Source: Candidatus Omnitrophota bacterium
GTDB taxonomy: Bacteria > Hinthialibacterota > Hinthialibacteria > OLB16
DNA length: 64,000 nt
Direction of reading: 5' to 3'
Assembly: GCA_020632575.1 (NCBI GenBank)
Contig: JACKFH010000012.1
Span: 1-64,000 of the forward strand
The translations under genes and the position numbers were made by a program. Positions 13,516 to 30,283 of the stretch are shown in pieces (position 1 is the first letter of the stretch; each line of letters opens with the position of its first letter). The notes under the pieces were generated by a model that made no database searches, had not been told where the DNA came from, and saw nothing but the letters and a program-made list of their open reading frames with translations.

Positions 13516-13531
13516 CCTGCCATTATTCGAG

Positions 13532-14527
13532 TCAGCGCAAGGTCCATATCGAAGCCGCGATTTGCGGTTTGAAGGCGTCGTGGAGGTCCGTGCGCGAAAG
13601 GCCAATCATGGGTCCCCCGCCGGGTAGATGAATCTCCCCGCCGAGAATTCCCGCGTCGATCCCGTGACGACCCAAGGGCATGGGAGCGAGACTCATCCAT
13701 TGATCGGCGGCGGGATCGTAAACCTCCACCTCATCGAAGATCCCATTCGGACGACTTGATCCCTCGCCGCCAAATACAAAGATCCTTTCCAACAGCGCGG
13801 CCGAAGCAATTCCCGCTCTGGGTGTCGGAATGTCCGCCCCCGAGGTCCACGTTTCGGTCCCGGGATCGTAAATCTCCAACTCGCTCCGCAGCATCGGGTT
13901 TCTGCCGGCGATGGCGAACACCTTCCCGTTCCAGCCCTCCACAGCAAGGTGATCGCGCGGGGTCGGCATATCCGGGAGAGTCTCCCATTCCCCCGATACC
14001 GGATCGAATACCGCGAAATCACCCACGCTTCCACCCGATCGGATGCCGCCCGCCACGTATATCTTTCCGCCCACAAACGCCCCCCTTCCTCCCCCTCTCC
14101 GTGTCGGCATCGGCGACTCCTCGGTCCATCGATTCGTTGAGGGTTGGTAGCTGAAAACGGCGTTCGTGGCGGATTGGGGCGAGGCGAAAACGAGACCCCC
14201 GATGGCGTACAGTCGGTCCTCGGCGGCCACCACAGCCACATGATCGAGATCCGCCGGGAGTGGAGCGACTGTCTCCCACTGCTTGGAGTCTGGATCGTAT
14301 CGCTCGACAGTGTCGACAACCGCTGGAGTGGAATCGATCCCCCCCACGACGTAAAGGAGATCGTTTAGAACCGCGACCCCTACCTCCTGTCTGGCAGTGG
14401 GAAGGGGTGCTTTGTCCTCCCACACTCCGACAATTTCCGCGAGTGTTTCAGAACCTGAAAAGAGAGATGAGTTGAGGATCAGGGTGAAGAGCAAGCGAAG
14501 GGGGGCGGATTGTGATCGCTTTTTCAT
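13532..14527 (-). CDS. Secreted Kelch-repeat beta-propeller protein
   Basis: Signal peptide plus repeated LYVVGG / LYAIGG / IYVAGG / VFAIAGR Kelch motifs with conserved W/Y spacing. Confidence 0.6.
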   Translation of the reverse strand: MKKRSQSAPLRLLFTLILNSSLFSGSETLAEIVGVWEDKAPLPTARQEVGVAVLNDLLYVVGGIDSTPAVVDTVERYDPDSKQWETVAPLPADLDHVAVVAAEDRLYAIGGLVFASPQSATNAVFSYQPSTNRWTEESPMPTRRGGGRGAFVGGKIYVAGGIRSGGSVGDFAVFDPVSGEWETLPDMPTPRDHLAVEGWNGKVFAIAGRNPMLRSELEIYDPGTETWTSGADIPTPRAGIASAALLERIFVFGGEGSSRPNGIFDEVEVYDPAADQWMSLAPMPLGRHGIDAGILGGEIHLPGGGPMIGLSRTDLHDAFKPQIAASIWTLR

Positions 14528-14549
14528 CGGGTCTCGAGGCCCCTTCGAA

Positions 14550-15623
14550 TTATCGATCTTGGAATTCCGAGCCTTCCAAATTCAAGTATTCGAACAGAGG
14601 ACTGTCGGTGCTCAAAATCAAATTGTCCTGTTGAGTGATGGTTTTCTTGAGGGCTTGGAGGGAGCGATAGAATTTGAAGAAATCGGGTTCCGAACCGAAT
14701 CCCTCCACCATGACCGTGGAGCCATCCTCGAGCGTCTCCTCGTACCCCTCCCAATAGATTTGAGCGGCTTTGGCGTCGGCATCCCCTCGGATCCGAAGCC
14801 GCTCCTTCTCCGCGTTCGCCAACATCGCCTTGACTGTCCGATCGGTCTCCGAACGAATGATGTTCGACTCTCGCTCTCCCTCCATCCGGTAACGGTTGGC
14901 GATTCGGTTCCGCTCCTCGATCATTCTGCGGTAAACCGATTCGGCGTTCTCCATCGGAAGGTCGGCCCGCTTGATCCGGACATCGACCACTTCGATGCCG
15001 TACTTGCGCGAGGTCAGATCGCAGCTTTCGGTCACCTTCTGCATCAACACCTCACGCCCCTCGTGGACCGGTTGGTTGTAGGTCTCGTACTCTCCTTCGC
15101 GAATTCCCATTACCTGGATCGGTTTCGTCGAGGAACGGATGATCTCGTAGTGAGACTGACGACCCAGTTCCTTCCTGAGCTCCGACCCCACCACGGCTCT
15201 CAGGCGAAGGGTGGCCTTGGCTTCATCTTGGACTCGCAAATAAAAGAGGAGCGGGTTTCGAATTCGCCAGCGAGCATAACTGTCGATGCTCAACTGATAC
15301 TTATCGACAGTGACTATATCCCGGGGTTGTTCATCGAACTCGATAATTCGCGCATCCACCTTCTCGACTGTTTGGATGAAGGGAACCCGCATATAAAGCC
15401 CCGGACCATTGCCAACACTGACCGAGGCTTCGGTCGCCGACCGAATTTCCTCGGCAATCTCCTCGAATTGATTCTGGTGGATGGGGTTGACGATGACCTT
15501 GACCGGTTTTCCGAGCTGGATAACCACCGCTTGTTCCGTCTCTCCGATGGTGAAAAAGATGAACGGCGAGAAAAGCACAAACAGGGCGATCAGGACAAGA
15601 ATCGGAATACGCAGTTGTTTCAT
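14550..15623 (-). CDS. hflC: SPFH/band-7 protein HflC
   Basis: N-terminal TM helix followed by an SPFH domain. Overlaps the hflK stop by 4 nt (15620-15623), the typical hflKC arrangement. Confidence 0.7.
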   Translation of the reverse strand: MKQLRIPILVLIALFVLFSPFIFFTIGETEQAVVIQLGKPVKVIVNPIHQNQFEEIAEEIRSATEASVSVGNGPGLYMRVPFIQTVEKVDARIIEFDEQPRDIVTVDKYQLSIDSYARWRIRNPLLFYLRVQDEAKATLRLRAVVGSELRKELGRQSHYEIIRSSTKPIQVMGIREGEYETYNQPVHEGREVLMQKVTESCDLTSRKYGIEVVDVRIKRADLPMENAESVYRRMIEERNRIANRYRMEGERESNIIRSETDRTVKAMLANAEKERLRIRGDADAKAAQIYWEGYEETLEDGSTVMVEGFGSEPDFFKFYRSLQALKKTITQQDNLILSTDSPLFEYLNLEGSEFQDR

Positions 15624-16696
15624 TGTTCCCGACCTCCCATAGCGTCCGATGGGGGATTGATGTCGGGTTTGGCCGTCCCCTCTCCGGACAGATGAAGAAG
15701 GGGAAGGATATTCGCGAGATTTTTATCGATGAGGGTGAAATCGGCCGATTCGAAAATCTCCTCCATCGTTTCGAGATAAAGCCGCTGGCGAGTCACTTCT
15801 TCCGAGCGCCGATACTCCTTGAGCAGCGCCGAGTACTTCTGGATTTCACCCTGCGCGGTCAAAATTCTTTCCTGGTAGTATCCCGAGGCTTCATTGACTA
15901 GTTTGGCCGCCTCGCCCTCCGCGCGGGGGATTTCCCCGTTTTCATATCCCCTGGCGCGGTTGATCTGTTCTTGTTTGTTTTCCTTGGCCGAGATGACATC
16001 TTTGAAAGCATCCTGCACGGCGTTCGGCGGTTGCGCCTCGACCATGTTGATCGTTTGAATCTCGACCCCGAGGCCGAACCGATTCGCGAGTTCCTGGCTG
16101 AAGATCAGGATGTCGTTTTCGATCTCGGACTTGCCCTCGGTGAGAGCGGCGTCGATTCCATAGTCCCCGATCACGCGACGCAAGGTTGCTTCTCCGATGT
16201 CTCTCAGCGCCTCCTCTTGTTCGCGAACATTGAACAGGTAATCGGCCGGAGAAATGATGCGGTACTGAATTTCCAACTCGACATGGAGAATGTTTTCATC
16301 CCCGGTCAACATCAGGGCTTCGTCCTGGATCATCGTTCTGTCTCGACCGGCTTCCGTGGATTGTGAGAAGAAGTTCTCCTGGCCATCCGACGACCGATAT
16401 CCGATTGGCAGGAAATGAATCTTTTGAATGTCCACTATGTGGACATTTTCAATTGGCCAGGGGAGTTTGAATCGAAGTCCAGGACCGGCTGTGCGAACGT
16501 GTTTGCCAAATCGGAGAACCACCCCCTGCTCGCCCGCTTCCACTTTGTAAAAAGGGTTGACCACGAAGACGAGCAGAAAGAGCAGAACGATGACGAGGAC
16601 GGCGCCGCCCGACCGGAAAAACTTTTGGAAAAGTTCCTTCCAATCGTTGGGAGTCCGGTTGAAAAGGAGAACCACGTTGTCGTCGTTATTCGGCAT
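15620..16696 (-). CDS. hflK: SPFH/band-7 protein HflK
   Basis: N-terminal TM helix, SPFH domain and C-terminal coiled-coil region. Sits upstream of hflC. Confidence 0.7.
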   Translation of the reverse strand: MPNNDDNVVLLFNRTPNDWKELFQKFFRSGGAVLVIVLLFLLVFVVNPFYKVEAGEQGVVLRFGKHVRTAGPGLRFKLPWPIENVHIVDIQKIHFLPIGYRSSDGQENFFSQSTEAGRDRTMIQDEALMLTGDENILHVELEIQYRIISPADYLFNVREQEEALRDIGEATLRRVIGDYGIDAALTEGKSEIENDILIFSQELANRFGLGVEIQTINMVEAQPPNAVQDAFKDVISAKENKQEQINRARGYENGEIPRAEGEAAKLVNEASGYYQERILTAQGEIQKYSALLKEYRRSEEVTRQRLYLETMEEIFESADFTLIDKNLANILPLLHLSGEGTAKPDINPPSDAMGGREQ

Positions 16697-16895
16697 GGTC
16701 TTCGGTCCGGGGAATCGACTCTGCTTTTCTTTTTGGAGAACTCACTTGGATGCATGATAGGACCAATGACTTTTTTTCGATAGGGCCATCTTCCGATGCA
16801 TCTTCGGATGCGCCACGTTGGTTTGTCCACCAATGGGGAGGTGGACGATTAACAGGCCCGCGGCTTAAGATGTCTCGGGCTCGGAGGCATGATCT

Positions 16896-18449
16896 TTGAT
16901 GAAATGGATTTTTATTGTTTTCCCAATTCTCTTTTCGATTCAGTGCATCGCGGAAAGTCCGGACAACGTTCGCTTGTCCACCGCAAAGGACTCCTCGCTT
17001 CCATCCATCCGTATTGGATCCCACTCCCAACTCTTCCTCGACGATTATCTCATCGAGTCGATGGAGGGGCTGACCCGCAAGGTGCAGTCTGTTCGGAAAT
17101 GTGGGGACAATCCGGTTCTCGTTCCGACTGAGCCTTGGGAGGAGCCCTATGCTATTGTCTACGGCTCGGTCATCAAGGAGGACGGGCTCTTTCGGATCTG
17201 GTATTACGGCTCCTCGGGAGTCTGTTACGCCCAAAGCGAAGACGGCATCCATTGGACCAAGCCGGAACTCGATTTAACTCAATACGAGGGCCTTCCCACC
17301 AACATCGTCATCGACCGAAACGCGCCCCAAACGGCGGCAAATCCATTCGAGTATTTCTATGAACTTTTCGGGGTCTGGAAGGACCCCATCGATCCCAATC
17401 CGAATCGTCGATACAAAATGGGAGTGCTTTGCATCCAGCGGAATTACGAGGGTCCGCGAGAAGATCCCTTTCATCATGGTCAACGACGAGGACTCGGAAT
17501 TGCCGCCAGTCCCGATGGCATCCATTGGAAGGAGGGGTTCGATTTCGCAACGGAGGCCATCTGCGACGGGGCCACTCATTTGATGTGGGATGCCCCGAAC
17601 GAGAAATGGGTGGTTTATGGCCGGACGAAGTATGTCGATGAACAGCTCTTGAAGATTTGGGATAACGAATGGGCCGATCGATACTACTGGGGCCGGTCTG
17701 TCGCGAGAGCCGAGAATGACAACTTGATCGATTGGCCGGAAAGTTTCCCAGGCGAGGCGCCCAGGGTGATGACTTCCGATGCCCAGGACCCTCCCGGGAC
17801 CGAGATCTACGGGATGAATGTCTTCCCTTATGAGGGGATCTACATCGCATTGATCCAGATGTTTTATAACCAACCCGAGGATTGCTTCTTGGATGTTCAA
17901 TTGGGCGTCAGTCGCGATGGAGTCCATTTCGAACGAGTCGCCGACCGGAGTCCCTTCATCCCGGTCGGCGGAACCGGAGAGTGGGATCGTTTCAATCAGT
18001 CGCCCGCCAACAATCCGCCGATCGAGGTTGGCGATGAATTGCGATTCTATTACGGGGGCCGATCCTACCGACACAGTCCGTACGATGGCCCCGACAATGG
18101 CGAGAAATTCGGCGCGGTCGGTTTCGGATCGATCCTTCGGGACCGGTTCGTCGCTCTCGAGGCCTCTTATGTCGGAGGAACTCTGACCACCCGGCCGCTC
18201 GTCCTAGATTCGATAGACCTCACACTGAACGCGGAATCCAAGTTTGGCGAGATCCGGGTCATGCTTTTGAATGACCAAGGCGAGACCCTCGCCGAATCCG
18301 AACCGATCTGTTCCGATGGTTTGAAGATCCCGATCCAGTGGAAAGAGAATCCCGACAGTAGGATCATCGAGAGCGGGATCCGAGTTCAGTTCAAAATCCG
18401 GAACGCGAAATTGTATTCCTTTCGACAACACCCCGATGACCTAAGGTAA
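16896..18449 (+). CDS. Secreted Asp-box (BNR) repeat protein, glycoside-hydrolase/sialidase-like
   Basis: Signal peptide, then repeated S-x-D-G-x-x-W Asp-box motifs (SEDGIHW, SPDGIHW, SRDGVHF). Confidence 0.5.
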   Translation: MMKWIFIVFPILFSIQCIAESPDNVRLSTAKDSSLPSIRIGSHSQLFLDDYLIESMEGLTRKVQSVRKCGDNPVLVPTEPWEEPYAIVYGSVIKEDGLFRIWYYGSSGVCYAQSEDGIHWTKPELDLTQYEGLPTNIVIDRNAPQTAANPFEYFYELFGVWKDPIDPNPNRRYKMGVLCIQRNYEGPREDPFHHGQRRGLGIAASPDGIHWKEGFDFATEAICDGATHLMWDAPNEKWVVYGRTKYVDEQLLKIWDNEWADRYYWGRSVARAENDNLIDWPESFPGEAPRVMTSDAQDPPGTEIYGMNVFPYEGIYIALIQMFYNQPEDCFLDVQLGVSRDGVHFERVADRSPFIPVGGTGEWDRFNQSPANNPPIEVGDELRFYYGGRSYRHSPYDGPDNGEKFGAVGFGSILRDRFVALEASYVGGTLTTRPLVLDSIDLTLNAESKFGEIRVMLLNDQGETLAESEPICSDGLKIPIQWKENPDSRIIESGIRVQFKIRNAKLYSFRQHPDDLR

Positions 18450-18530
18450 AAGTTGATTTTTGCCTTGCGATCCCAGGAAAATTTTCCAGCAAAATCCTCT
18501 TTTATCTTTTTGGTGTCTTATGCTTAATTA

Positions 18531-18560
18531 TTGACTTTCATCGTTTGCGGCGTGTATGAT
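18531..18560 (+). promoter_or_regulatory. Sigma-70-type promoter (-35 TTGACT, 18-nt spacer, -10 TATGAT) with AT-rich upstream element
   Basis: Read from the sequence. An AGGAGGG RBS at about 18577-18584 precedes the ATG at 18592. Confidence 0.45.
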
Positions 18561-18591
18561 CAAAAGAGGTGATCCCAGGAGGGAACCAATC

Positions 18592-18924
18592 ATGGCTGAG
18601 ATCGGATTAACACCCCAAAATATCGCTCCCCCCGCGCCTCCCCAATTTGAGGGGCGAACCCAACCTTTGGAGCGATCGCCCCAGACACAACCGGCGGTTG
18701 ACCAGCTCGAGATCAGCCCCGAGGCCGACCAGCGGTTAGCCGAGGTTCAGGCTTCGGACAATGCGGCCATTACATCCACCCAACTTTCCGTTGACGAATC
18801 CGAAAGGCCTCCCTCGGAGTCGCGTGGAGTTACTGATTTCCAACGCCAACAAGCCATTTCCAGTTTTCAAAATCGTGGTGGTCTGTTCGAGCCCCCACCC
18901 GAACTTTTCGACGAAAAGGCCTAG
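18592..18924 (+). CDS. Hypothetical 111-aa Pro/Gln/Glu-rich, probably disordered protein
   Basis: Internal ATG at 18592 is preceded by an SD sequence and the strong promoter above. Low-complexity composition, no recognisable domain. Confidence 0.4.
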   Translation: MAEIGLTPQNIAPPAPPQFEGRTQPLERSPQTQPAVDQLEISPEADQRLAEVQASDNAAITSTQLSVDESERPPSESRGVTDFQRQQAISSFQNRGGLFEPPPELFDEKA

Positions 18925-18971
18925 AGGCTCTTCCACTCCCAGCCTGTGGTCCCTCGACACTGTGTCCCGCA

Positions 18972-19035
18972 GTGGGAGCGGCATCCCTGCCGCGAAGCCC
19001 AGACCCGCGATTCGGGGCAGGGATGCCCCTCCCAC
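18972..19035. repeat. Palindromic intergenic repeat, family 1 (copy 1)
   Basis: 20-bp inverted arms GTGGGAGCGGCATCCCTGCC / GGCAGGGATGCCCCTCCCAC around a 24-nt core. About 90% identical to the second copy at 31964-32026. Confidence 0.7.
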
Positions 19036-19108
19036 GGTTCAGAAACAAGATTGGCCTTTTTTACTTTAGACCTCCCGCCCTCCCCACCGGTTCTCCAACA
19101 AAGAAAAT

Positions 19109-19137
19109 AGCCGCGAGAAGTCTCACTCCTCGCGGCT
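19109..19137. terminator. Bidirectional rho-independent terminator hairpin
   Basis: AGCCGCGAG-N11-CTCGCGGCT stem with T-rich runs on both strands. Lies between convergent genes 18592..18924 and flotillin. Confidence 0.55.
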
Positions 19138-19194
19138 TTCATTGTTGTTCCACTTCCACCCTGGTCCAGGGTCTTCCTTATCCCGACCTCGGGA

Positions 19195-20793
19195 CTACTT
19201 CTTAGGCCCTTCCTGCGGACTGGCGGAAGGCGGAGAGGTCTGAACCGACGGGACCCCAGTCGCTGTCGGAGGTTCCGTCGGGCGTGGCGCTGGCGTCGGA
19301 TCGGTTTTAAAACGACTCAGGATGTTGACCCCGGTCGCTGTCTCGATCTGCTCCGCGAGGGAAATCACAGCTCCCGGTAGCTGATTCACCACCCGGCTGA
19401 CTCCTCCGGTCGATCCGTTCTGACCCCCATCGATCACGGTCATCTTGTCGATGTTCACCTTGTCGATGGTCTTCACAAGCTCCCCGATAATCTCCGGAAG
19501 CATATTGAGCATGAAGATCTTCTCTCCGTCGCCATCGGCGGTCTTGTAGGTGGAGATCATCTGCTCGAGCACTTTCAGTCTCGCCTGACCCTCTTGGAGA
19601 ATCGGCGCGGCGGCCCCCTTGGCCTCCTCCTCCATCGCCTCGCGTTTGGCTCGCGCCGGTTCGATAACATCGGCCATCAGACGTTTCTGTTGAAGGATGA
19701 TTCGCTCTTCCTCCATCGCCTGCTCGTACTGGGCTTTGGCTTTCTCGCCCGCGACAGAGGCTTCTTGCTCCTTGATCACCGCATCTTTCTCTAGTTCCGC
19801 TTCTTTGATTCGGAGATCGTTCTGAGCCATGGCGATATTCTGGTCGGCCTGCGCTCGAGAGGTTTTCACCTCGCGATCCGCGTCGATCTCGGCGGTCTTG
19901 ATCTTCTGATCCGAGACCGCCTTGGCCGTGTCGGCGCGACGTTTCGCCTCGGCTTCGGCCTCCTGAGCGAGCGCGGCCTGTTCGGCCTCGGCCTGACGAG
20001 CCGAGGAGTCCGCGGAGGCTTGGGAGCGTTTGACTTCGAGTTCCGCCTCGATCTCCGCGGTCCGAATCGCTTGATCCGCTTTCGCCTTGGCCACCTGGGC
20101 GCGCTGGCGAGCCACCGCCTCGGCCTCTTGGGCGTCCGCCGCTTGTTCTGCCTCGCCCTTGCGAGCCTCGGCCAAGACCTCAGCGGTCTTCCGGCGCCCG
20201 ATGGAGTCGAGATAACCCGCCTCGTCGGAAACGTTCTGAATCTTCAGCGTGTCGAGTTGGAGTCCGAGCTGCTGGAGATCGTTGTCCGCCTCGCCGATCA
20301 GACTCTGAGCGAACTTGAGGCGATCTTCGTTGACCTCTTCCGGGGTCAGTGTCGCCAAGACGCCGCGAAGGTTGCCCTCCAATGTGTCTTTGGCGATCTT
20401 GTGCAGTTCCGATTCCGGCAAGGAAAGGAATCGTTCGACCGCGTTCCCCAACGAAGATTCATCGGATTGAATCTTCACATTGGCGATCGCGTCGACCTTC
20501 AGAGGGATGCCTCCTTTGGAGTAGGCGTTCTTCACCGAGAGCTCCAACGGAATGGTCTCCAGCGACATCCTCGCCGCCTTCTCGATGATCGGAATTCGAA
20601 AAGCTTTTCCGCCTTGGATGATGCGATAACCGACCACTTTTCCATCCGACAACTTCCTCTTTCGACCCGAGAGGATAATGACCTCGTTGGGATGACAGAT
20701 CAGGAGATACCGGCTGAGGAATATGGCAATAACGATAAACAGAACCACCGCCACAACGGCGATCGGTATAAACCAACCGAGTGGACCACCCAT
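19195..20793 (-). CDS. Flotillin-like SPFH protein (YqiK/FloT family)
   Basis: 532 aa. N-terminal TM, an SPFH domain, then a long Ala/Glu/Gln-rich coiled-coil (EA-repeat) region and a C-terminal flotillin domain. Confidence 0.75.
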   Translation of the reverse strand: MGGPLGWFIPIAVVAVVLFIVIAIFLSRYLLICHPNEVIILSGRKRKLSDGKVVGYRIIQGGKAFRIPIIEKAARMSLETIPLELSVKNAYSKGGIPLKVDAIANVKIQSDESSLGNAVERFLSLPESELHKIAKDTLEGNLRGVLATLTPEEVNEDRLKFAQSLIGEADNDLQQLGLQLDTLKIQNVSDEAGYLDSIGRRKTAEVLAEARKGEAEQAADAQEAEAVARQRAQVAKAKADQAIRTAEIEAELEVKRSQASADSSARQAEAEQAALAQEAEAEAKRRADTAKAVSDQKIKTAEIDADREVKTSRAQADQNIAMAQNDLRIKEAELEKDAVIKEQEASVAGEKAKAQYEQAMEEERIILQQKRLMADVIEPARAKREAMEEEAKGAAAPILQEGQARLKVLEQMISTYKTADGDGEKIFMLNMLPEIIGELVKTIDKVNIDKMTVIDGGQNGSTGGVSRVVNQLPGAVISLAEQIETATGVNILSRFKTDPTPAPRPTEPPTATGVPSVQTSPPSASPQEGPKK

Positions 20794-20858
20794 GATGAAA
20801 CCTCCCTTTCAAGCAATATGGACCCGCAATTTCAAACCAAACCGGTTGAGGTTTTTTA

Positions 20859-21452
20859 TTATGCGATGAAATCCTCGCCCGCGATGTGGGCGACGCCATC
20901 GACAATCCGCACGATGGTGGCGTTTTCCCCCTCGGAAAAGTTCTTCTTGGTCGCCTCTTCCGCCACCTCCGCGAGCATTTGGATCTTCCGTTCGTTGGTT
21001 GAGATGGATATCTTTCCCCGTTGTCCGACCGCCACGGGAAGTGTGATTCGTGCGTTCAGGCCGACACACTCCGAGAGGTTGCTCACCTCGCCGGACTCCG
21101 AGGTCTTCAGATAGATCATCAGTTTGTGGCAAAGAATCGCGGCGAACAGTCCCATGACGATGGCCGAAATCAGAGTCACCAGAAACGACGATCCAGTCCA
21201 AGTGAGTAGCGAGCCGGTCAGCCCAAAGAAGGCGCTGAAAAAGATCAGATTCCGGAAGCTCAGAAACTGGATGGCCGCCATCAACCCTTCGCCATGAACA
21301 TCAAAGTCAGCGTCGGTGTCCAGGTCGACATCCGTGTCGAAATCGAGTCCGCCGTCCATGTCGAAATCCAGATCCGAATCCCCCCCGAACAACATCGTGA
21401 ATAGCAGGAGGGCGCCTCCAAAAATGAGACAAGCCAGATAGATCGTGATCAT
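20859..21452 (-). CDS. NfeD-like membrane protein (YqiJ family), partner of flotillin
   Basis: N-terminal TM helix, an Asp-rich linker, further TM helices and a C-terminal OB-fold-like segment. Lies directly upstream of flotillin, the conserved nfeD-floT operon arrangement. Confidence 0.65.
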   Translation of the reverse strand: MITIYLACLIFGGALLLFTMLFGGDSDLDFDMDGGLDFDTDVDLDTDADFDVHGEGLMAAIQFLSFRNLIFFSAFFGLTGSLLTWTGSSFLVTLISAIVMGLFAAILCHKLMIYLKTSESGEVSNLSECVGLNARITLPVAVGQRGKISISTNERKIQMLAEVAEEATKKNFSEGENATIVRIVDGVAHIAGEDFIA

Positions 21453-21600
21453 GGTTTACCGACCCTCCTTTCCGAGATGGCATCCCTGGTTTCAATTCCA
21501 GAAACCGATTCTATTTGCCTCGATGTTTTTCAATCTGTGTCATTCCGAACTGATAGCAGTAGGACTGCTAATTGATACAAGGGAACGATGGTCGCTGTAC

Positions 21601-21670
21601 GTCATACCCGCGGAGGCGGGTATCCAGAGCGCGGGCCTTCCCGCTGGATTCCCGCCTTCGCGGGAATGAC
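21601..21670. repeat. Palindromic intergenic repeat, family 2 (copy A)
   Basis: 25-nt arm GTCATACCCGCGGAGGCGGGTATCC, a 20-nt unique centre, then the 25-nt inverted arm GGATTCCCGCCTTCGCGGGAATGAC. Each arm contains its own CCCGC/GCGGG mini-hairpin. Confidence 0.7.
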
Positions 21671-21751
21671 ACCAATCGAAGCACTCGTTTCGAATCGCTT
21701 TTCGCCCAACGATTCTCGGCCCTCCCGTATCGATCGTCGGAATGGCGGCGA

Positions 21752-22447
21752 TCAAATTTCCCCCTTCAATCTCTTCAACTCCTCCTCGATCGCCGTGTCC
21801 TCGGAGAGTTTCTGAAGGTCGAGTTCTTTTTGAACGTCCTGTTGAAGCATTTCCCTCTCCGCTTCGGCGATCGACTCGATGCGTGTGATTTCGTCCTCGT
21901 AATCAGCGATCCGGCTTTCTCCCGCCGCACCGCCTGAAGCCGTTTCTGTTGAAGTCTTAATCATTTCGGTGGACTTCCGAGTCGCTTCTTGGGAACGCAG
22001 GTTGGCCTCGGCGAGATGTTTCCTTCGTATGAGTTCTTCCTTCTTCCGCCGTGCCGACTGGACCTGATCCTCCAATCTGGCCAGGTCGGATCTCAGCCGA
22101 TCCGCCACCTCACGAGCGTTGACCAGTTCCTTATCGAGTGTTTCTCGGACCTTGACCGTGTGGATCTTCTTCGAAAGGATCTCACGAGTCTGATCGTCCT
22201 CCCCCTTTTTCAGAGCGGTCTTGGCGAGTTTTTCATATTCCTCAATTTGAGCCCCGGAGGTGGCGATCTGTTTTTCGATCTGTTTCACCCGAGCGACTCC
22301 ACGGACAGTCTCGCGACGGAGCTCCACAATGCTTCCCTCCATGTCGCGGATCATCTGTTTGACCATCAACTCCGGATCCTCCGCCTGATCGAGAAGGTGG
22401 TTGATGTTGGCGGAAATTAGTCTGGAAATTCTTTCGATGAGATTCAT
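21752..22447 (-). CDS. pspA: Phage shock protein A (PspA/IM30 family)
   Basis: Internal Met at 22447 (MNLIERISRLISANINHLLDQAEDPE) is the typical PspA N-terminus, with GGAGG 5 nt upstream. The rest is all-helical coiled-coil. Confidence 0.8.
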   Translation of the reverse strand: MNLIERISRLISANINHLLDQAEDPELMVKQMIRDMEGSIVELRRETVRGVARVKQIEKQIATSGAQIEEYEKLAKTALKKGEDDQTREILSKKIHTVKVRETLDKELVNAREVADRLRSDLARLEDQVQSARRKKEELIRRKHLAEANLRSQEATRKSTEMIKTSTETASGGAAGESRIADYEDEITRIESIAEAEREMLQQDVQKELDLQKLSEDTAIEEELKRLKGEI

Positions 22448-22516
22448 TTCCTTCGCCTCCCTCTTTCCGTACCCCGGCAACTCATTTGCCGGGTCGGCGC
22501 TTTTGAATCAAATGTT

Positions 22517-22533
22517 AAGCAGTCCTTATACCA
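22517..22533 (-). promoter_or_regulatory. Sigma-54 (-24/-12) promoter for pspA
   Basis: The minus strand reads TGGTATAAGGACTGCTT, matching TGGCAC-N5-TTGCW (GG and GC 10 nt apart), about 70 nt upstream of the pspA ATG. An AATTCCCAATTCTGGGAAATT palindrome at about 22591-22612 is a candidate activator-binding site. Confidence 0.5.
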
Positions 22534-22612
22534 ATCCGGCCTCACTCGATTTCTCAGTAATTGGGACAGGAATGGTGTGAATCGGTTGGTCTAAATTCCC
22601 AATTCTGGGAAA

Positions 22613-23509
22613 TTACGCCAACAATTCACCCAGATTGTATTTCTTGTAATAGTGGCGGAGCTGGTCGTAACTCAGCCCTAAATTCTTCGCCGCTTCCCGC
22701 TGGTTTCCTTTGGCGTCTTTCAGGGCGCCCAGAAGGAGAGATTGCTCGAAGGCGCGGACGCGGTCTTTGAAATTGCCGCCGAGTGGCTCCACGGTTGTGA
22801 TTTCCAGAGGAAGCTCCGCCGCGTGAATGACATTATCCTCATCCGAGACATACAGACGTTCGATCACATTCTTCAGTTGGCGAATGTTGCCGGGCCAATG
22901 GTAAGCTTGGAGCTCTTTGATCGCGGTCTCTGTGAAATGGGTGGGTTCAAGATTGGGAATCTCGATGTGAAGCAATCTGACGAAATGCTCAATCAGATGA
23001 GGGATGTCCTCCCGCCGCTTGCGAAGAGGAGGGAGCTGCAGTTCGGCGAAACAGAGTCGGTCATAAAGGTCGGGGAGAAAATCTCCCTTCGACATCATAT
23101 CTTCGAGAGGGCAATTGGTGGCCGCGATCACCCGGACATCCACCTCGAGGGTGTCACTCCCGCCCACTCGTTCGAATTTTTGATATTCAATGACTCGCAG
23201 AAGTTTCTCTTGCGCCGAGCGGGTCATATTGGCGACTTCATCCAGGAAAAGTGTGCCCCCATGCGCGAGCTCGAGTTTTCCCTTTCGTTCACGCGTGGCC
23301 CCGGTGAAGGCGCCCTTCTCGTGTCCGAACATTTCGGCGACAAAGAGTTCTTCCTGAAAAGCCGCGCAATTGACCACCACATAGGGATGATCGCACCGGT
23401 CGCTCGAGGCATGGATGAATCGGGCCATCAACTCCTTCCCGGTCCCCCTCTCCCCACGGATCAGGATTGGCCTTGGAATCTTAGCGAATTTCAGGGCCTC
23501 CTGGACCAC
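22613..23509 (-). CDS. pspF: Sigma-54-dependent transcriptional activator lacking a receiver domain (PspF-like)
   Basis: AAA+ sigma-54 interaction domain (GERGTGKE Walker A, GAFTGA-like GAFTGATRER, Walker B and arginine fingers) plus a C-terminal Fis-type HTH. The N-terminus is short, as in PspF. Confidence 0.75.
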   Translation of the reverse strand: MVQEALKFAKIPRPILIRGERGTGKELMARFIHASSDRCDHPYVVVNCAAFQEELFVAEMFGHEKGAFTGATRERKGKLELAHGGTLFLDEVANMTRSAQEKLLRVIEYQKFERVGGSDTLEVDVRVIAATNCPLEDMMSKGDFLPDLYDRLCFAELQLPPLRKRREDIPHLIEHFVRLLHIEIPNLEPTHFTETAIKELQAYHWPGNIRQLKNVIERLYVSDEDNVIHAAELPLEITTVEPLGGNFKDRVRAFEQSLLLGALKDAKGNQREAAKNLGLSYDQLRHYYKKYNLGELLA

Positions 23510-23681
23510 ATTGAGAAAAGACGGAGCGTCGCCGACGCCAGGTTGGCTGGTCTCTGAGATGTCCTCGTGAATGGGATCGCCTCCATCATGGATCGGAGTT
23601 CCAGTATCCCTCCAAATCCGTGTGATCGGATCGGGAGTTTACCACGATCATGAAAGGGATGAATAGGTAAGAATTGCCGGT

Positions 23682-24647
23682 TTAGACAGGGACCGGGGTG
23701 TCGGAGACAATCGATTGGAGGATCTGTTCAGCCTGGAGATAAGCATGAGTCCCCACACCCGATTGAGTTGCCATGATGATTCGGTGGGCCCACACAGGCA
23801 TGAGCATTTCCTGGATGTCGTCGGGGGTGACATAATCTCGCCCGTCCACCAGCGCCTTCGCTTGGACCGCCCGTTGGAGCGCGAGGGTCGCTCTGGGACT
23901 GACTCCTAGATGGATCTCGCGATTCTCGCGAGTTTTCTTGGCGAGCTGGGTGATATACCGCACCAAGCTTCCATCGACTTTGACTTTTGGCACCGCCTCC
24001 TGCCAGGAAAGGACCTCATCCAGATGAATGATCTGGGGTTTGATTACATCCCGATCGAGACCTCGATACTGGACCAGGATCTTCTCCTCCACATCGGCGG
24101 TGGGATACCCGATGGAGACCCGAATCAGGAAACGGTCGAGCTGGGAGACTGGGAGCGGGAAAGTTCCCGAGAATTCAAGCGGATTCTGGGTCGCCATGAC
24201 AAGAAATGGGGAAGGGAGGTCGTAGGTGTTTTTTTCGATGGTCACCTGCCCCGCCTCCATGGCTTCGAGGAAGGCGCTCTGAGTTTTTGGCGTGGTCCGG
24301 TTGAGCTCATCGGCGAGGAGGATATTGGTGAAAATAGGCCCTTCCTGGAAGGTGAACTCATTGGTGTTCCGGTTGAAAATTGGGGTGCCTAGGATGTCAC
24401 TCGGCATCATGTCGCTGGTGAACGAGACACGGTGGAATTTGCATTCCAGGATATTGGCCAGAGACCTCGCCATGGTGGTCTTCCCCACTCCTGGAACGTC
24501 CTCGATGAGAAGGTGCCCCCTGGAAAGCAGGGCGATTACCACCTTCTTGACCACTTCCCGCTTGCCTAGGATGACACTGTCCAGATAATCGAGAACCGCG
24601 CCGAAACGCTGATTGAGGTCTTTCAATTCCATGCTGGTTTTATTCAA
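23682..24647 (-). CDS. MoxR-family AAA+ ATPase
   Basis: Walker A GVGKTT, Walker B and the sensor regions typical of MoxR/RavA. Start is either the TTG at 24647 or the ATG at 24632. No VWA partner gene is adjacent. Confidence 0.75.
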   Translation of the reverse strand: MNKTSMELKDLNQRFGAVLDYLDSVILGKREVVKKVVIALLSRGHLLIEDVPGVGKTTMARSLANILECKFHRVSFTSDMMPSDILGTPIFNRNTNEFTFQEGPIFTNILLADELNRTTPKTQSAFLEAMEAGQVTIEKNTYDLPSPFLVMATQNPLEFSGTFPLPVSQLDRFLIRVSIGYPTADVEEKILVQYRGLDRDVIKPQIIHLDEVLSWQEAVPKVKVDGSLVRYITQLAKKTRENREIHLGVSPRATLALQRAVQAKALVDGRDYVTPDDIQEMLMPVWAHRIIMATQSGVGTHAYLQAEQILQSIVSDTPVPV

Positions 24648-24822
24648 CTTTCCACCGAAAACGTTCGCAAGTTATACAAGAAACATGGATTGCCAACAAT
24701 GGGTGGGGAATCCATCGAAGACAGCCCTTTGACCCTGGAAAAAAGAGGCCTGGATTGGTACGATTAAATGGTGTCCCGTCGTGGGACAATTTACATGAGT
24801 TATTTCCAGGAGTTAAAGAACC

Positions 24823-25143
24823 ATGATAGCGATCACTGAAGGGGCTGCGAGCGAGGCCAAAAGACTGATGGAACAGGAAAACCTGCAGGAATATGTTCTC
24901 CGTGTCGGAGTGCAAGGCGGAGGTTGTTCCGGCCTATCCTACACCCTCGGTTTCGATAACACGGTCAACGACACCGACCACATCATGGAGGATCATGGCA
25001 TCCGTCTTGTTTGCGACAACAAGAGCATGCTCTACCTTAATGGGGCCGTGTTGGATTATTCCAGCGATCTCATGGGCGGCGGGTTCAAGTTCAACAACCC
25101 CAACGCCAAAACCACCTGCGGTTGCGGAAGTTCTTTCGCCTAA
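24823..25143 (+). CDS. erpA: Iron-sulfur cluster insertion protein (HesB/IscA/ErpA family)
   Basis: 106 aa. Has the GGGCSG motif and the C-terminal CGCGSSF motif characteristic of A-type carriers. Confidence 0.75.
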   Translation: MIAITEGAASEAKRLMEQENLQEYVLRVGVQGGGCSGLSYTLGFDNTVNDTDHIMEDHGIRLVCDNKSMLYLNGAVLDYSSDLMGGGFKFNNPNAKTTCGCGSSFA

Positions 25144-25173
25144 ACGGATAACCCGCTCATCCACCAAACCAAC

Positions 25174-25209
25174 AAAAAAAGGAGGGGGATTTCTCACCCC
25201 TCCTTTTTT
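25174..25209. terminator. Bidirectional rho-independent terminator
   Basis: AAAGGAGGGGG-loop-CCCCTCCTTTTTT hairpin flanked by A-runs and T-runs, between convergent erpA and the DUF1080 gene. Confidence 0.6.
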
Positions 25210-25235
25210 CATTTAATTAGAGAGCCGTAAGTCAA

Positions 25236-25877
25236 TCAGTCCGGAAGAACCTTCACACGAATGTTCTTATAGAAAACCTTGCTATTCGGGTCGTGGGCCT
25301 GGATGGCGAAGGTCCCGCTCGAGAGATCCGTTCCTCGGGACCGATGATCCAATTCGGCCTTATCCTTCTCATCGTATTTGGCGCAGGTCTTCCCATTGAT
25401 TTGAGTTTCGATCGTCTTACCTTTGACAATGATTGTGTACTCGAACCATTCATTGTCCTTGGCCGGAGCCTCCAGGACTTTGACCGTGTCGTAGATCCCA
25501 GCAGTCTTCTGCGGATCCCCCTGGGTGTTGTTCACCTGACACTCGTATCCGTAGTTCGGCCAATCATCCTTCTGATATTTGGTGTGAATGTAGAGCCCCG
25601 AGTTCGAGCCTTTGGTGGTCATCACATCGGCTTTCAGGATGAAATTCTTGAAATTATGGTTTTCGACCGGTCCCTCGTAAAACAAATGCGCGCGAGCTCC
25701 ATTGGCGACAATTTGACCATCCTCCACCCTGAATGAATCGGGGTGGTCTTCGCTGACCTTCCACCCATCCAATGATTTACCATCGAAAAGCGAGATCCAT
25801 CCTCCATCCGAATCGCCCGCGGCGAACGCGCCGGTCACGATCATGAGGGAGAACGCTATGCAAAAGAACTTCTTCAT
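25236..25877 (-). CDS. Secreted DUF1080 (3-keto-disaccharide-hydrolase-like) protein
   Basis: Internal Met at 25877 is preceded by GGAGGA. Signal peptide, then the GWISLFDGKSLDGW motif typical of DUF1080 (the LamG-like jelly roll). Confidence 0.6.
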   Translation of the reverse strand: MKKFFCIAFSLMIVTGAFAAGDSDGGWISLFDGKSLDGWKVSEDHPDSFRVEDGQIVANGARAHLFYEGPVENHNFKNFILKADVMTTKGSNSGLYIHTKYQKDDWPNYGYECQVNNTQGDPQKTAGIYDTVKVLEAPAKDNEWFEYTIIVKGKTIETQINGKTCAKYDEKDKAELDHRSRGTDLSSGTFAIQAHDPNSKVFYKNIRVKVLPD

Positions 25878-25942
25878 GAGTGTTCCTCCATACAATAAAT
25901 TGGAACAGGATTATAAGCCCAATCGATGGATTGGGAACAGAC

Positions 25943-26122
25943 TCATGGGGCCATGTCCTCTCCCTCGCATTCTTCGCTGGACTTCTCTCGTTTCCGTTTG
26001 GCCACAGCGCGTTTGAGGAGGTACTCGATCTGGCCGTTGACGCTACGAAGTTCCTCATCCGCCCAACGGTTGATCTCTTCCCACAGATCTGGATTGATTC
26101 TCAGGAGGAATTTTTTCTTCAA
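25943..26122 (-). CDS. Unlisted small ORF: Arc/MetJ-type ribbon-helix-helix DNA-binding protein (59 aa)
   Basis: TTG start at 26122 lies 6 nt after GGAGGA. Translation: MKKKFLLRINPDLWEEINRWADEELRSVNGQIEYLLKRAVAKRKREKSSEECEGEDMAP. The RINPDLWEEI...RSVNGQIEYLL pattern matches the Arc-like domain (beta strand, then two helices). Confidence 0.5.
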   Translation of the reverse strand: MKKKFLLRINPDLWEEINRWADEELRSVNGQIEYLLKRAVAKRKREKSSEECEGEDMAP

Positions 26123-26223
26123 TGAGATTCCTCCCGATTCCGATTTTGATTCAGGTTCATTGGTTCTTTCGTTTTCTTACCTCTACCGACCAATTCAGTC
26201 GGTCTTCTTCCGGCCCCCTCCGT

Positions 26224-26293
26224 GTCATTCCTACGAAGGCAGGAATCCAGGGGGCAGGCCCCGGCCCTGGATACCCGCCTCTGCGGGTATGAC
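26224..26293. repeat. Palindromic intergenic repeat, family 2 (copy B)
   Basis: Arms GTCATTCCTACGAAGGCAGGAATCC and GGATACCCGCCTCTGCGGGTATGAC around a different 20-nt centre. Confidence 0.7.
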
Positions 26294-26377
26294 GCATTCG
26301 GTTTCCTTTTACTAATCAGCGGCCGCCTGCTGCACGCTCGGAATGACACCATTTGGAGTGGGGTAAGAGGAATGAAA

Positions 26378-27271
26378 TTACCCATACAGAGTCCCGGTAT
26401 TGATCACGGGGTGCGCCTCACGCTCTCCGCACAGGACGACCAGGAGGTTGCTGACCATCGAGGCCTTCTTCTCTTCGTCCAGTTCGACCACGCCTTCTTT
26501 TTCCAATCGTTCCAAAGCCATTTCGACCATTCCGACCGCTCCATCGACAATGGTCTTTCTGGCCGAAACGATTGCCGAGGCTTGTTGCCGTTTGAGCATG
26601 GCCTCCGCAACCTCCTGGGCGTAGGCCAAATGGGAGAGTCTCGCCTCTTCCACAATGACTCCGGCTTTCCAGAGTCTTTCGGTCAATTCTTTTTCGAGCG
26701 CCTCGGACACTTTGTCGATATCCCCTCGGAGAGAAACGGTGTCCTCGGTCTCTTCCCATGAGTCGTAGGGATAGGAACTCGCCAGGTGGCGCAACGCCGA
26801 TTCGCTTTGGGTTTGAACGTAGTACTCATAGTCGTCGACATCGAATAGCGCCGAATAGGTGTCTTTCACCCGCCAGACCACAATGAGCGCGATCTCGATT
26901 GGATTGCCCGTGTAGTCGTTCACCTTGAGTCGCTCGCCGTTGAGGTTTCTGGCCCGCAGAGAGATGTTCCACTTGGACATCAGTGGATTCACCCAATAGA
27001 AACCGTTCTTTTTCACCGACCCCTTGTAGTTTCCGAATAGCACCAGCACCCCCGCCTGATTCGGTTGCACGATCATGAAACCCACCGAGACGAAGATCGC
27101 CAGCAACAGAAGGAATATCGATCCGCCCACCATCCAGCCACCCCATGGCGCTCGGCGCTCGAGTCCCATGACCCCGTCGATGAACAAGTAGATCGACAAA
27201 AGATACATCGCAATGTTAATCGCCAACATCAACCAACCAGACAACGCCTTCCTCTCAATTTCCTGTGTCAT
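26378..27271 (-). CDS. SPFH/band-7 (stomatin-like) membrane protein
   Basis: Internal Met at 27271 has GGAGGT 8 nt upstream. Two N-terminal TM helices are followed by an SPFH domain. Confidence 0.65.
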
Positions 27272-27377
27272 GATGTCTGACCTCCGACATTTCATTAAAG
27301 TAGGTAAATGATATCACAATGATTTTACATTACAATCTCTCTTCAGAAACCTCGGCCATTCGAGTAAGCCATCAGTC

Positions 27378-27447
27378 GTCATACCCGCGCAGGCGGGAAT
27401 CCATGGGGGAGAGACCGGCTGTGGATACCCGCCTGCGCGGGTATGAC
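27378..27447. repeat. Palindromic intergenic repeat, family 2 (copy C)
   Basis: Arms GTCATACCCGCGCAGGCGGGAATCC and GGATACCCGCCTGCGCGGGTATGAC around a third, different 20-nt centre. Lies in the divergent promoter region between the SPFH gene and algI. Confidence 0.7.
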
Positions 27448-27555
27448 GGTTATGAGTGGCGGAAATGAAGGGTATGGGCGCCCATTCTTTTCTTCGCTCT
27501 TTACCTGATTGGCGAAAACCGGGAATAATCCCCCCTCTTTCATATCGATCTCATT

Positions 27556-29094
27556 ATGGTCTTCAGCTCAATTACGTTCCTTTTCCTATTCCTACCGGTC
27601 GTCCTGGTCCTCTATCATCTGCTGTTTTTGCCGGTGACCCTGGGTTGGCATTCGTCCTTTTGGCGGCGAGCGAGCAATTGTTTCCTACTTCTCGCCAGCC
27701 TTCTCTTTTATTTCTGGGGGGAGGATTACCTGGTTTGGATCATCGTCACCTCGACCCTGATCGATTATTTTTGCGGTCTCTTGATTGCAGGGGGACTGGG
27801 GGGTGGGGAGATCCACCGCCTGGATCCAAATCGAAAAAGGACGGCCCTTCAGAAATTTGGCCTTATCTTCTCGATCTGTTCCAACCTCGCCTTTCTTGGG
27901 TTCTTCAAGTACTTCAACTTTGGGATCTACAACTACAACCGCGCGATGGGCGCATTCGGTTTGGAGAGCCTCCAGTGGCTGGATGCCGCGTGGATCGCGC
28001 TTCCATTGGGAATCAGTTTCTACACCTTCCAATCGATGAGTTACACGATCGATGTCTACCGGGGCGAGGTGAAGGCGACGCGGAATCTGATCGACTTCGC
28101 CTGCTATGTGACCATGTTCCCCCAGCTCGTGGCCGGACCGATTGTCCGATACCGCGATGTCGCTCGAGAACTGGTTTCACGGAGAATCACTTCGGAGGAG
28201 TTCGCTTCCGGAGTCAGCCGTTTCATCATTGGGCTCGCCAAGAAAGTGCTGATTGCAAACACGGTGGCGGTCGGCGCGGATCAGGTCTTTGCTCTTCCCG
28301 ATAGCGAACTCACTTTCTCATTGGCCTGGTTCGGAGTGATTTGCTACACGCTCCAGATCTATTTCGATTTCTCCGGTTATTCCGACATGGCGATCGGCCT
28401 CGGTCGGATGTTCGGTTTCAATTACCTGGAGAATTTCAATTACCCCTACATTGCCCAATCCATTCAAGATTTCTGGCGGCGCTGGCACATCTCCCTTTCG
28501 ACCTGGTTCCGTGACTATCTGTACATCCCTTTGGGCGGCAGTCGGGGGTCGGGGGCTCGAACCTATTTCAACTTAGTCACGGTCTTCTTCCTCTGCGGGT
28601 TCTGGCACGGAGCAAGTTTCACCTTCATCGCGTGGGGGCTATATCACGGTTTTTTCCTGGTCATCGAGCGGGTCGGGCTCTTGCGGTTTCTATCCAGAAT
28701 GCCGAGAGGCGTTCGTCACGCCTACGCGGTCCTTGTGGTCATGGGGGGGTGGGTGCTCTTCCGATGCGCCGGAAAGTTCGCGCAGGCGATCGCTTTTTAT
28801 CAGGCCATGATCGGAATGGGGCGGGGAACCGGTGAGCAGTATGGACTCGACATCGTCATGACCGCCGATATTGCCCTCGCCATCCTCCTCGGGATCCTAT
28901 TTTCGGCGCCGGTTCTTCCTTACCTCCACCAATGGATTCGAGATCGAATCCACAGTTCGGGATCTGTCGGGAGAATTTTGGGTGAAGCGGGTTTTTCGAG
29001 TCTCCGAGTGATCGGTCTGGCAACGCTATTTGGATTGAGCGCGATGTGGCTTTCCGCAGGGACCCACAACCCGTTCATCTATTTCCGGTTCTGA
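27556..29094 (+). CDS. algI: MBOAT-family membrane O-acyltransferase (AlgI/DltB-like)
   Basis: 512 aa, polytopic. Conserved MBOAT His (FWRRWHISLSTWFRDYLY) and FWHGASF motifs. Confidence 0.8.
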   Translation: MVFSSITFLFLFLPVVLVLYHLLFLPVTLGWHSSFWRRASNCFLLLASLLFYFWGEDYLVWIIVTSTLIDYFCGLLIAGGLGGGEIHRLDPNRKRTALQKFGLIFSICSNLAFLGFFKYFNFGIYNYNRAMGAFGLESLQWLDAAWIALPLGISFYTFQSMSYTIDVYRGEVKATRNLIDFACYVTMFPQLVAGPIVRYRDVARELVSRRITSEEFASGVSRFIIGLAKKVLIANTVAVGADQVFALPDSELTFSLAWFGVICYTLQIYFDFSGYSDMAIGLGRMFGFNYLENFNYPYIAQSIQDFWRRWHISLSTWFRDYLYIPLGGSRGSGARTYFNLVTVFFLCGFWHGASFTFIAWGLYHGFFLVIERVGLLRFLSRMPRGVRHAYAVLVVMGGWVLFRCAGKFAQAIAFYQAMIGMGRGTGEQYGLDIVMTADIALAILLGILFSAPVLPYLHQWIRDRIHSSGSVGRILGEAGFSSLRVIGLATLFGLSAMWLSAGTHNPFIYFRF

Positions 29095-29104: not shown

Positions 29105-30283
29105 ATGGATCGAATAGCCCACCGGATCGAACGTTTCACACAATGGCTGATGATCATCGGCTTCATGGTTCTCCTATGGGCGCCCCTGTCGGATCAGGTT
29201 TTCGATTGGGGACCGAAGATCGACCTGGGCGAGAAACGGAACTTGGCGGGTTTCGCCTCCCTTGAGAATGTGTCTGTGGCCGAATTCCCCGACGCTTTCG
29301 AGAAGTACTATGACGACCAGTTCGGTTTGCGGTCGATGCTTGTGCGAGGCTACCGATTGATCACCAGCCGTCTCCTCGGCCTCTCGACTGAGAAAGTGCT
29401 CATCGGCGAAGACGGCTGGCTCTATTACTCGGGTCCGGTCATCGATGATTTCATGGGGCGGCGAGAGAGTCCCTACGATCACTTTGACCGTTGGAAGGAC
29501 AAACTGGAAACCTGGACCGACTGGTTTACCGAAAGGGACATGACCTACCTTTTCGTCGTTGCTCCCAACAAGGTCACCATCTATCCCGAACATCTCCCCG
29601 AACGGTACCGCAAGCGAGCGGGAAGGACTCGCATGGACCGTCTAAAAGAATACTTGGCGGAGAATTCCAGAGTCCCCCTGTTCGACCTGCGCGAACCCAT
29701 GCGTGAGGCCAAGGACCTCGGCTTGGTCTACCACCCCAACGATTCCCACTGGACCGACCTCGGCGCCTTCATCGCTTTCCAAGAAATCTGTCGGGAGATC
29801 TCATCCGCCACGGGCGTAAATATGGATTGCGGCTCGATAGAGGACTATCGATTCGTAAACCAGGTTCATGAGGGTGACCTAGGGGAAATGATCGGTTTCG
29901 GAAAGGCTTTTTCGGTCGATTCCCTCACCCTCGAACCGAAGACCCCCTTCCACCAAGCGCAATATATGGACCGCCCCGAAGGCGCCGATTGGCTCTGGCA
30001 TGGAATGCTTCTCAAGGAGAATCCCGAGAAGACTGGAAAACTCCTGGTCTTCCACGATTCCTTCACCCGGCATGGCCTCATCGACTTTCTCGGCGAGCAA
30101 TTCAATCGAAGCGTCTTCGTCTACCTCCGCCGACCCAGCTTCGAATCGGTTCGGTACATGGTCGAACGAGAAAAGCCGGATGTCGTCATCGAGGAAATGG
30201 CGGAGAGATTCTTGAGCCTTTGGCTTAAGGACGAGGACTTGTTCTATGAAGAGGATTCACAACCCAGAACGGAAGGGGAATAA
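29105..30283 (+). CDS. AlgJ/AlgX-like SGNH-fold O-acetyltransferase partner
   Basis: N-terminal TM anchor, then a periplasmic domain with the DSHWT motif of the AlgX/AlgJ family. Lies immediately downstream of algI, the conserved pairing. Confidence 0.6.
   Translation: MDRIAHRIERFTQWLMIIGFMVLLWAPLSDQVFDWGPKIDLGEKRNLAGFASLENVSVAEFPDAFEKYYDDQFGLRSMLVRGYRLITSRLLGLSTEKVLIGEDGWLYYSGPVIDDFMGRRESPYDHFDRWKDKLETWTDWFTERDMTYLFVVAPNKVTIYPEHLPERYRKRAGRTRMDRLKEYLAENSRVPLFDLREPMREAKDLGLVYHPNDSHWTDLGAFIAFQEICREISSATGVNMDCGSIEDYRFVNQVHEGDLGEMIGFGKAFSVDSLTLEPKTPFHQAQYMDRPEGADWLWHGMLLKENPEKTGKLLVFHDSFTRHGLIDFLGEQFNRSVFVYLRRPSFESVRYMVEREKPDVVIEEMAERFLSLWLKDEDLFYEEDSQPRTEGE

Follow-up and report, generated by a model that had tools for sequence, protein, structure and literature searches.

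The closest described counterpart of the repeats analysed here is the Neisseria Transformation Sequence (NTS), CGTCATTCCCGCGMAVGCGGGAATCYRG, which contains dRS3 (ATTCCC-N8-GGGAAT) and has been generalized to 'Ssn-related motifs' (SRM) in many bacteria (Chenal et al. 2025, PMC11893778). The NTS is bound by SsnA, a 94-aa GIY-YIG protein, only as single-stranded DNA (ssDNA) and only on the strand that reads it forward; the cut lies a few nucleotides upstream of the motif, and cutting depends on the GTC before the palindrome, binding on the C that follows it (PMC11893778). The NIMEs of Neisseria (dRS3-RS-dRS3) consist of inverted dRS3-type repeats round a non-conserved 'RS' segment, and flank genes whose alleles exchange by recombination. 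In REPINs and BIMEs, which are REP doublets associated with RAYT transposases, inverted pairs of hairpin repeats enclose a less conserved spacer, and the units are dispersed in intergenic DNA. Here we describe three 70-bp palindromic elements, E1, E2 and E3, from a Candidatus Omnitrophota species represented by metagenome-assembled genomes (MAGs). They lie in a 64-kb stretch of DNA (positions 1–64,000 of contig JACKFH010000012.1; hereafter the window), and each is a pair of NTS/SRM hairpins facing one another across a 20-nt centre. We consider it probable that E1–E3 are convergent NTS/SRM pairs with Ssn-recognized arms and a drifting spacer, that they descend from one duplicated ancestor, and that they play no part in the regulation of the neighbouring psp and SPFH genes.

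A search of the window with the arm pattern GTCATWCCCGCNNAGGCGGGWATCC (up to three mismatches) returned six arms arranged as three convergent pairs. Five match exactly and one (26224–26248) has three mismatches; the pattern found no match in 100 shuffles of the window. E1 (21601–21670) is composed of an ATACCC..GGGTAT arm (hereafter A..T arm; 21601–21625(+)), a centre (21626–21645) and an ATTCCC..GGGAAT arm (T..A arm; 21646–21670(-)), the last being a strict dRS3 identical to the published NTS consensus at 27 of 28 positions. E2 (26224–26293) has the opposite orientation, with a degenerate ATTCCT..AGGAAT arm (26224–26248(+)), a centre (26249–26268) and an A..T arm (26269–26293(-)). E3 (27378–27447) comprises an arm with an A/A mismatch in this strain (27378–27402(+)), a centre (27403–27422) and an A..T arm (27423–27447(-)). 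All three elements are intergenic and the centre is exactly 20 nt in each, so that the initial annotation, which had placed three 70-nt intergenic palindromes at these positions, was exact. Its statement that every arm folds as its own mini-hairpin holds for four arms, which form an 8-bp stem with a 4-nt loop when folded singly as ssDNA (-8.6 to -9.3 kcal/mol); the hairpins of the other two are weakened by single-nucleotide polymorphisms (SNPs) specific to the window strain. As whole ssDNA elements, E1 and E3 fold at -32.9 kcal/mol (z = -7.6) and -37.5 kcal/mol (z = -11.6), respectively, and E2 more weakly at -18.2 kcal/mol. No Rfam family matches the elements, and none of the three is flanked by direct repeats of the kind left by target-site duplication.

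The arms are the NTS/SRM hairpin motif. They share with it a length of about 28 nt, an 8-bp GC-rich hairpin, and a 5' (C)GTC and 3' C that give orientation (PMC11893778); the GTC upstream and the C immediately downstream are present in six of six window arms. The published criterion is a match to CGTCATTCCCGCGMAVGCGGGAATCYRG with 1 mismatch, or a match to a degenerate SRM pattern (PMC11893778). In coordinate order the arms have 3, 1, 4, 4, 2 and 3 mismatches to the NTS consensus; the 1-mismatch rule is passed by the right arm of E1 and, in a sister strain, by the left arm of E3. Three of the six match the degenerate pattern, and the other three fail it only at loop positions. Half of the differences from the consensus represent the compensatory swap from ATTCCC/GGGAAT to ATACCC/GGGTAT, and a C-G to T-A change in an E2 arm is also compensatory. 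Pairing is also seen in 110 aligned arms from other organisms, in which 98.5% of stem cells are paired and seven of the eight stem pairs show compensatory double changes, a level of covariation reached in 0 of 500 shuffles. A covariance model built from these foreign arms and run over the window with filters off recovered only the six window arms, at 38–48 bits, the next best hit scoring 12.5 bits. This bears out the earlier remark that no further copies exist elsewhere in the 64 kb.

Every element pairs one T..A-type arm with one A..T arm, E1 being inverted relative to E2 and E3. Once the centres are oriented by this polarity, E1 and the reverse complement of E2 are identical at 15 of 20 positions, E2 and E3 at 13 of 20, and E1 and the reverse complement of E3 at 11 of 20. 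The summed identity is significant in a permutation test (p = 0.00025), and the centres, initially described as entirely different, are therefore 55–75% identical. Homology between E1 and E2 also runs about 70 nt past the A..T arm on one side, so that the pair, as inverted copies of a unit at least 135 bp long, brackets a 4.5-kb psp block. Because the oriented centres are alike and E1 and E2 share this flank, the three elements are diverged copies of one unit; their centres, thought odd for simple REP elements, are less odd as variants of a single sequence. Differences affect 14 of 150 arm positions and 21 of 60 centre positions (Fisher p = 2e-5), that is, the centres have changed about four times as fast as the arms. 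E1–E3 are thus old copies of one unit in which the arms are constrained and the centres drift. No match to a centre with four or fewer mismatches was found elsewhere in the window or in adjacent sequence, and the idea that the centres might correspond to other loci gained no support there.

The shared E1/E2 flank contains an exact GTGTCATTCCGA, which resembles, and may be, a decayed third arm. Decayed half-arms adjoin both elements: GTCATTCCGAA at 21539–21549(+), 51 nt outside the A..T arm of E1 and within the homology with E2, and its mirror GTCATTCCGAG at 26337–26347(-), outside the A..T arm of E2. A weaker candidate, GCCATTCCGAC (21736–21746(-)), lies 65 nt from E1 on its opposite flank, just ahead of the pspA stop. 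A second NTS-like variant occurs in sequence of the same species about 3.9 kb past the right end of the window (L365, 17027–17339), as an inverted pair, GTCATTCCGACGATAGGAGGAATCTGA and GTCATTCCGACAACAGGAGGAATCTGA, enclosing 253 nt; its 5' half matches the decayed half-arms beside E1 and E2. The enclosed segment holds a GTAG-prefixed hairpin, GTAGCCACGGGATTGATCCCGTGGC, reminiscent of REP.

Outside the window the motif is widely dispersed. The arm pattern occurs in at least 120 stretches of viral contigs, and its A..T variant in at least 119 stretches of species-representative genomes. Among the genome matches listed, those with the A..T variant include Cloacimonadota, Elusimicrobiota, Chloroflexota, Nitrospirota, Planctomycetota, Campylobacterota, Desulfobacterota, Chlorobiota, Pseudomonadota, Legionella, Coxiellaceae, Bradyrhizobium and others, so that the named matches span more than ten major bacterial lineages. 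Like the NTS/SRM, the arms are dispersed between genes, clustered round some of them and shared across phyla, and elsewhere Ssn genes, which encode cd10448-type single-domain GIY-YIG proteins, are bracketed by inverted copies. The alternative raised at the outset, that the elements are unique to this locus, is contradicted by the distribution: hundreds of unrelated contigs from many phyla carry the same arms, which supports a dispersed family. What sets the window apart from the published motif is its host, Candidatus Omnitrophota; the A..T variant, which makes up half of the arms; and the tight convergent doublet, an arrangement undiscussed in the main text of PMC11893778.

Convergent pairing is nevertheless frequent. 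Neighbouring arms are convergent in 68 of 94 pairs among the genome loci listed, and metagenomes contain at least 120 doublets with centres of 8–30 nt. Among the 120 metagenome doublets listed, centre lengths peak at 17–21 nt (19 nt, 18 doublets; 21 nt, 14; 17 nt, 9; 20 nt, 7), and the centres are unrelated between contigs, with some recurring. The architecture in the window is therefore the common one for the motif, not a peculiarity of the locus. We considered whether the mixture of arm types reflects a designed asymmetry and rejected this: at loci chosen for an A..T arm the partner is T..A in 58 cases and A..T in 2, and when metagenomes are sampled without bias, A..T arms account for only some 4% of the total, so that mixed doublets are what random pairing would give.

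One Coxiellaceae MAG carries a whole doublet, centre included, on six contigs, and the doublet can therefore be copied as a unit. Local amplification is seen as well. Whole doublets form tandem arrays at L142 6264–6490, with centres of 20–21 nt and an 8-nt linker, ACCGATTT, and three doublet copies with an identical 44-nt centre are present at L161 5133–5821. These two arrays show the doublet amplified locally as a unit.

The arms are associated with small Ssn-like genes. GIY-YIG open reading frames (ORFs) of 95–103 aa with PF01541 as their sole domain lie directly between inverted arms at six loci, five viral and one in a gammaproteobacterial MAG (L068, L003, L031, L112, L095 and L181). Further single-domain GIY-YIG ORFs are found in 3 of the 120 listed metagenome doublet loci (L363, L342 and L321), so that the association is reproduced in nine other loci in total. 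At L068 7786–8164, a compact arm-ssn-arm unit of about 380 bp on a phage-like contig has a portal gene on one side and a terminase gene on the other, and resembles a free-standing homing-endonuclease gene. Inverted arm pairs on two other viral contigs (L044 359–681 and L038 11722–12038) enclose small ORFs that are not GIY-YIG. A search with an Ssn profile gave at least 7999 homologues at E <= 1e-10; among the 120 listed, none is named as Omnitrophota. All-against-all clustering of the ORFs at the 119 listed genome loci revealed no recurrent mobility, transposase, recombinase, Band_7 or PspA gene near doublets, and this lack of a recurrent neighbour beside dispersed doublets fits an enzyme that acts in trans. 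The same clustering bears on a recombinase- or phage-linked role, which has already been published for dRS3 and would agree with the abundance of arms in viral contigs. We regard it as very improbable for E1–E3, given that neither a recombinase nor a prophage is present in the window and that no recombinase gene recurs near the doublets in the 119 loci; it would at best be a secondary use of the motif.

In the mechanism that we propose, the arms would be recognized as ssDNA by small single-domain GIY-YIG Ssn nucleases that cut a few nucleotides upstream. Since the arms are inverted, whichever strand is exposed as ssDNA, be it at a replication fork, in DNA uptake or in DNA transfer, would display one correctly oriented hairpin, and the predicted cut site would be the outer border of the element. 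Recognition of both sequence and structure would hold the arms constant, and the 20-nt centre would drift because it serves only as a spacer or loop. One ancestral doublet duplicated within this Omnitrophota lineage would have given the three copies, which would occupy sites that tolerate insertion, with no specific psp/SPFH regulatory role. By extension, this genome presumably encodes a cognate Ssn, the arms would be cleaved in vivo, and the doublet, rather than the single arm, would be the copied unit.

Several observations weigh against this reading. Ssn cuts only the strand that reads the NTS forward, and it therefore cannot by itself excise a convergent doublet from one strand; moreover, altering the palindrome with the hairpin kept abolishes SsnA activity (PMC11893778), and recognition of the ATACCC..GGGTAT variant is predicted only. 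A tblastn search that covered the 64-kb window and about 11 kb of neighbouring sequence from the same species found no Ssn homologue. These roughly 75 kb contain only three doublets (six arms), so that a high copy number in this genome would be conjectural. Finally, the elements contain three SNPs, two of which disrupt stem pairing in the window strain, one in the left arm of E2 and one in the left arm of E3, a hint of relaxed constraint.

Some of these points favour the strongest rival, which we nonetheless hold to be unlikely: that E1–E3 are decaying relics, NTS-derived doublets that persist as inert and harmless intergenic leftovers in a lineage without an active Ssn. The lack of an ssnA in the roughly 75 kb, the low copy density, the stem-breaking strain-specific SNPs and the decayed half-arms beside E1 and E2 all speak for it. 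A history of simple decay agrees poorly, however, with arms that are about four times less diverged than the centres and with arm changes that are often compensatory, both of which point to constraint during most of the history of E1–E3. All three elements occur at the same sites in the sister assembly GCA_020632615.1, which is 99.3% identical over 18.6 kb without gaps, and there all six stems are intact; the E2 left arm is a perfect hairpin with the compensatory T-A pair, and the E3 left arm has the canonical ATTCCC. We continue to favour Ssn-recognized arms. E1–E3 are genuine but unremarkable elements, selfish or domesticated, and belong to a known repeat family in a new phylum.

The resemblance to NIMEs is architectural only. 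The dRS3 cores of E1–E3 are 24 bp apart, within the published RS range of 19–214 bp, and the inverted repeats enclose a segment that is not conserved. By contrast, E1–E3 are isolated units whereas NIMEs usually form arrays; the centre is much shorter than the ~50–150 bp typical in Neisseria; strict ATTCCC-N8-GGGAAT is found in only one of the six window arms; and NIMEs are described as Neisseria-specific. E1–E3 accordingly do not belong to the NIMEs. A bolder form of the Ssn reading, which is tentative and in our view doubtful, is that the convergent doublet is itself a functional, replicating, REPIN-like Ssn unit, and that pairs of doublets (E1 and E2 round the psp block, E2 and E3 round the SPFH gene) mark cassettes for Ssn-dependent recombination or transfer control. 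If this were true, doublet-marked cassettes would operate in phyla far from Neisseria.

The likeness of E1–E3 to REPINs and BIMEs likewise has limits. Inverted doublets with a variable spacer do resemble REPINs, dependence on a single-copy enzyme recognizing ssDNA hairpins is a presumed further likeness, and a Y1_Tnp gene exists in a sister strain. The motif is nevertheless unrelated, the associated enzyme is a GIY-YIG nuclease and not an HUH Y1 transposase, and no RAYT is linked. We consequently give hardly any credence to mobilization of E1–E3 as REP/BIME elements by RAYT, an IS200-like Y1 transposase. The arms lack a 5' GTAG-type signature and are NTS/SRM; a Pfam scan of 46 window ORFs detected neither a Y1 transposase (PF01797) nor RAYT, and RAYT and transposase genes alike are absent from the window and from about 11 kb of further sequence of the species; and the gene that arms bracket elsewhere is GIY-YIG. 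The sister-strain gene belongs to a 643-bp strain-specific IS200-like insertion in GCA_020430105.1 (L366 11409–12051), at window 62259–62268, which encodes a 145-aa Y1_Tnp and has different end hairpins of its own (CCACGG..CCGTGG and CCACGTG..CACGTGG), with no NTS arms nearby. The 10 bp at window 62259–62268 align on both sides of the insertion, and a contig of another assembly ends there. Of the initial proposal of a REP/MITE-like family with a RAYT site, what stands is a dispersed repeat with arms kept as a protein site and a free centre; the RAYT connection does not. A MITE in the strict sense was also considered and rejected: inverted arms are present, but there is no flanking direct repeat and no transposase near dispersed copies.

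The elements lie among psp and SPFH genes, which raises the question of local regulation. On the minus strand the neighbourhood comprises an SPFH gene (19195–20793), a hypothetical gene (20859–21452), pspA (21752–22480), a pspF-like sigma-54 activator gene (22613–23509), a MoxR ATPase gene (23682–24647), a 3-keto-disaccharide hydrolase gene (25236–25895), a small RHH gene (25943–26122) and a second SPFH gene (26378–27295); on the plus strand it continues with MBOAT (27556–29094) and an AlgX-like gene (29105–30283). E1 is 82 nt 3' of the pspA stop and E2 85 nt 3' of the stop of the second SPFH gene, while E3 is situated between the divergent SPFH (26378–27295) and MBOAT genes, outside both promoter-like sites. 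As the initial annotation had observed, all three copies fall within about 6 kb of this SPFH/Psp neighbourhood, a clustering that three random points within 5.85 of 64 kb would show with p ~0.024. It is the one point in favour of local regulatory palindromes serving as sites for the PspF-like activator or another SPFH/Psp regulator. That explanation is refuted by distribution and retains next to no probability: arms of identical sequence are present in many phyla and in unrelated settings, no Band_7 or PspA family recurs near them, and E1 and E2 lie 3', not 5', of their adjoining genes. Matches to sigma-54 promoters near psp were not above chance.

The position of E1 and E2 behind stop codons, on the transcribed strand, suits a role at the RNA level, in which 70-nt hairpins in the pspA and SPFH 3' untranslated regions would block 3' exonucleases or end transcription; the corresponding RNA folds are strong (-56.1 kcal/mol for E1 and -49.0 kcal/mol for E2). 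We judge this improbable. E3 lies between divergent genes, and short doublets in other genomes are equally frequent in divergent and convergent gaps (8 and 8, with 23 between tandem genes). An RNA hairpin would need neither the conserved GTC/C flanks nor a sequence kept across phyla, and published SsnA does not bind the RNA form of the motif (PMC11893778). The terminator version, part of the initial proposal of 3' mRNA hairpins, fares no better: E1–E3 all lack a U/T tract behind the hairpin, are not marked as terminator-like, and so do not qualify as intrinsic terminators, a reading against which the gene-context counts and the location of E3 between divergent promoters also speak. An effect on RNA is possible as a side effect.

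Other features of the locus and its strains are recorded here. Over window 9195–27751, the window strain and the strain of L121 show 125 differences, strongly clustered at 13329–14198, 17003–17183, 22084–22343, 23111–23431 and 25949–26308, a pattern suggestive of several recombination tracts. The boundary of one cluster is 15 nt past E2, a single case and too little to tie tract ends to doublets. At window 26126 the small RHH (CopG-like) gene, which starts with ATG as annotated in the sister strain, has ATC through an SNP; the likely start in the window strain is then a TTG six bases further downstream. Another palindrome, at 18972–19035 and presumably the 'Family 1' of the initial annotation, separates a small ORF from the 3' end of the SPFH gene 19195–20793; its 25-nt arms, GTGGGAGCGGCATCCCTGCCGCGAA and TTCGGGGCAGGGATGCCCCTCCCAC, are 92% complementary and 14 nt apart. 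A long imperfect inverted repeat at 46782–46922 has 45-nt arms, 80% complementary and 51 nt apart.

With the palindromes identified, annotation as regulators of psp/SPFH, as terminators or as REPs of the RAYT type is not appropriate. Their identity places the recently characterized Ssn/NTS system in Candidatus Omnitrophota. In public data, the arrangement that the motif most often takes in environmental bacteria is the tight convergent doublet with a free spacer of 17–21 nt, and models of how Ssn-associated repeats spread or act must account for it.

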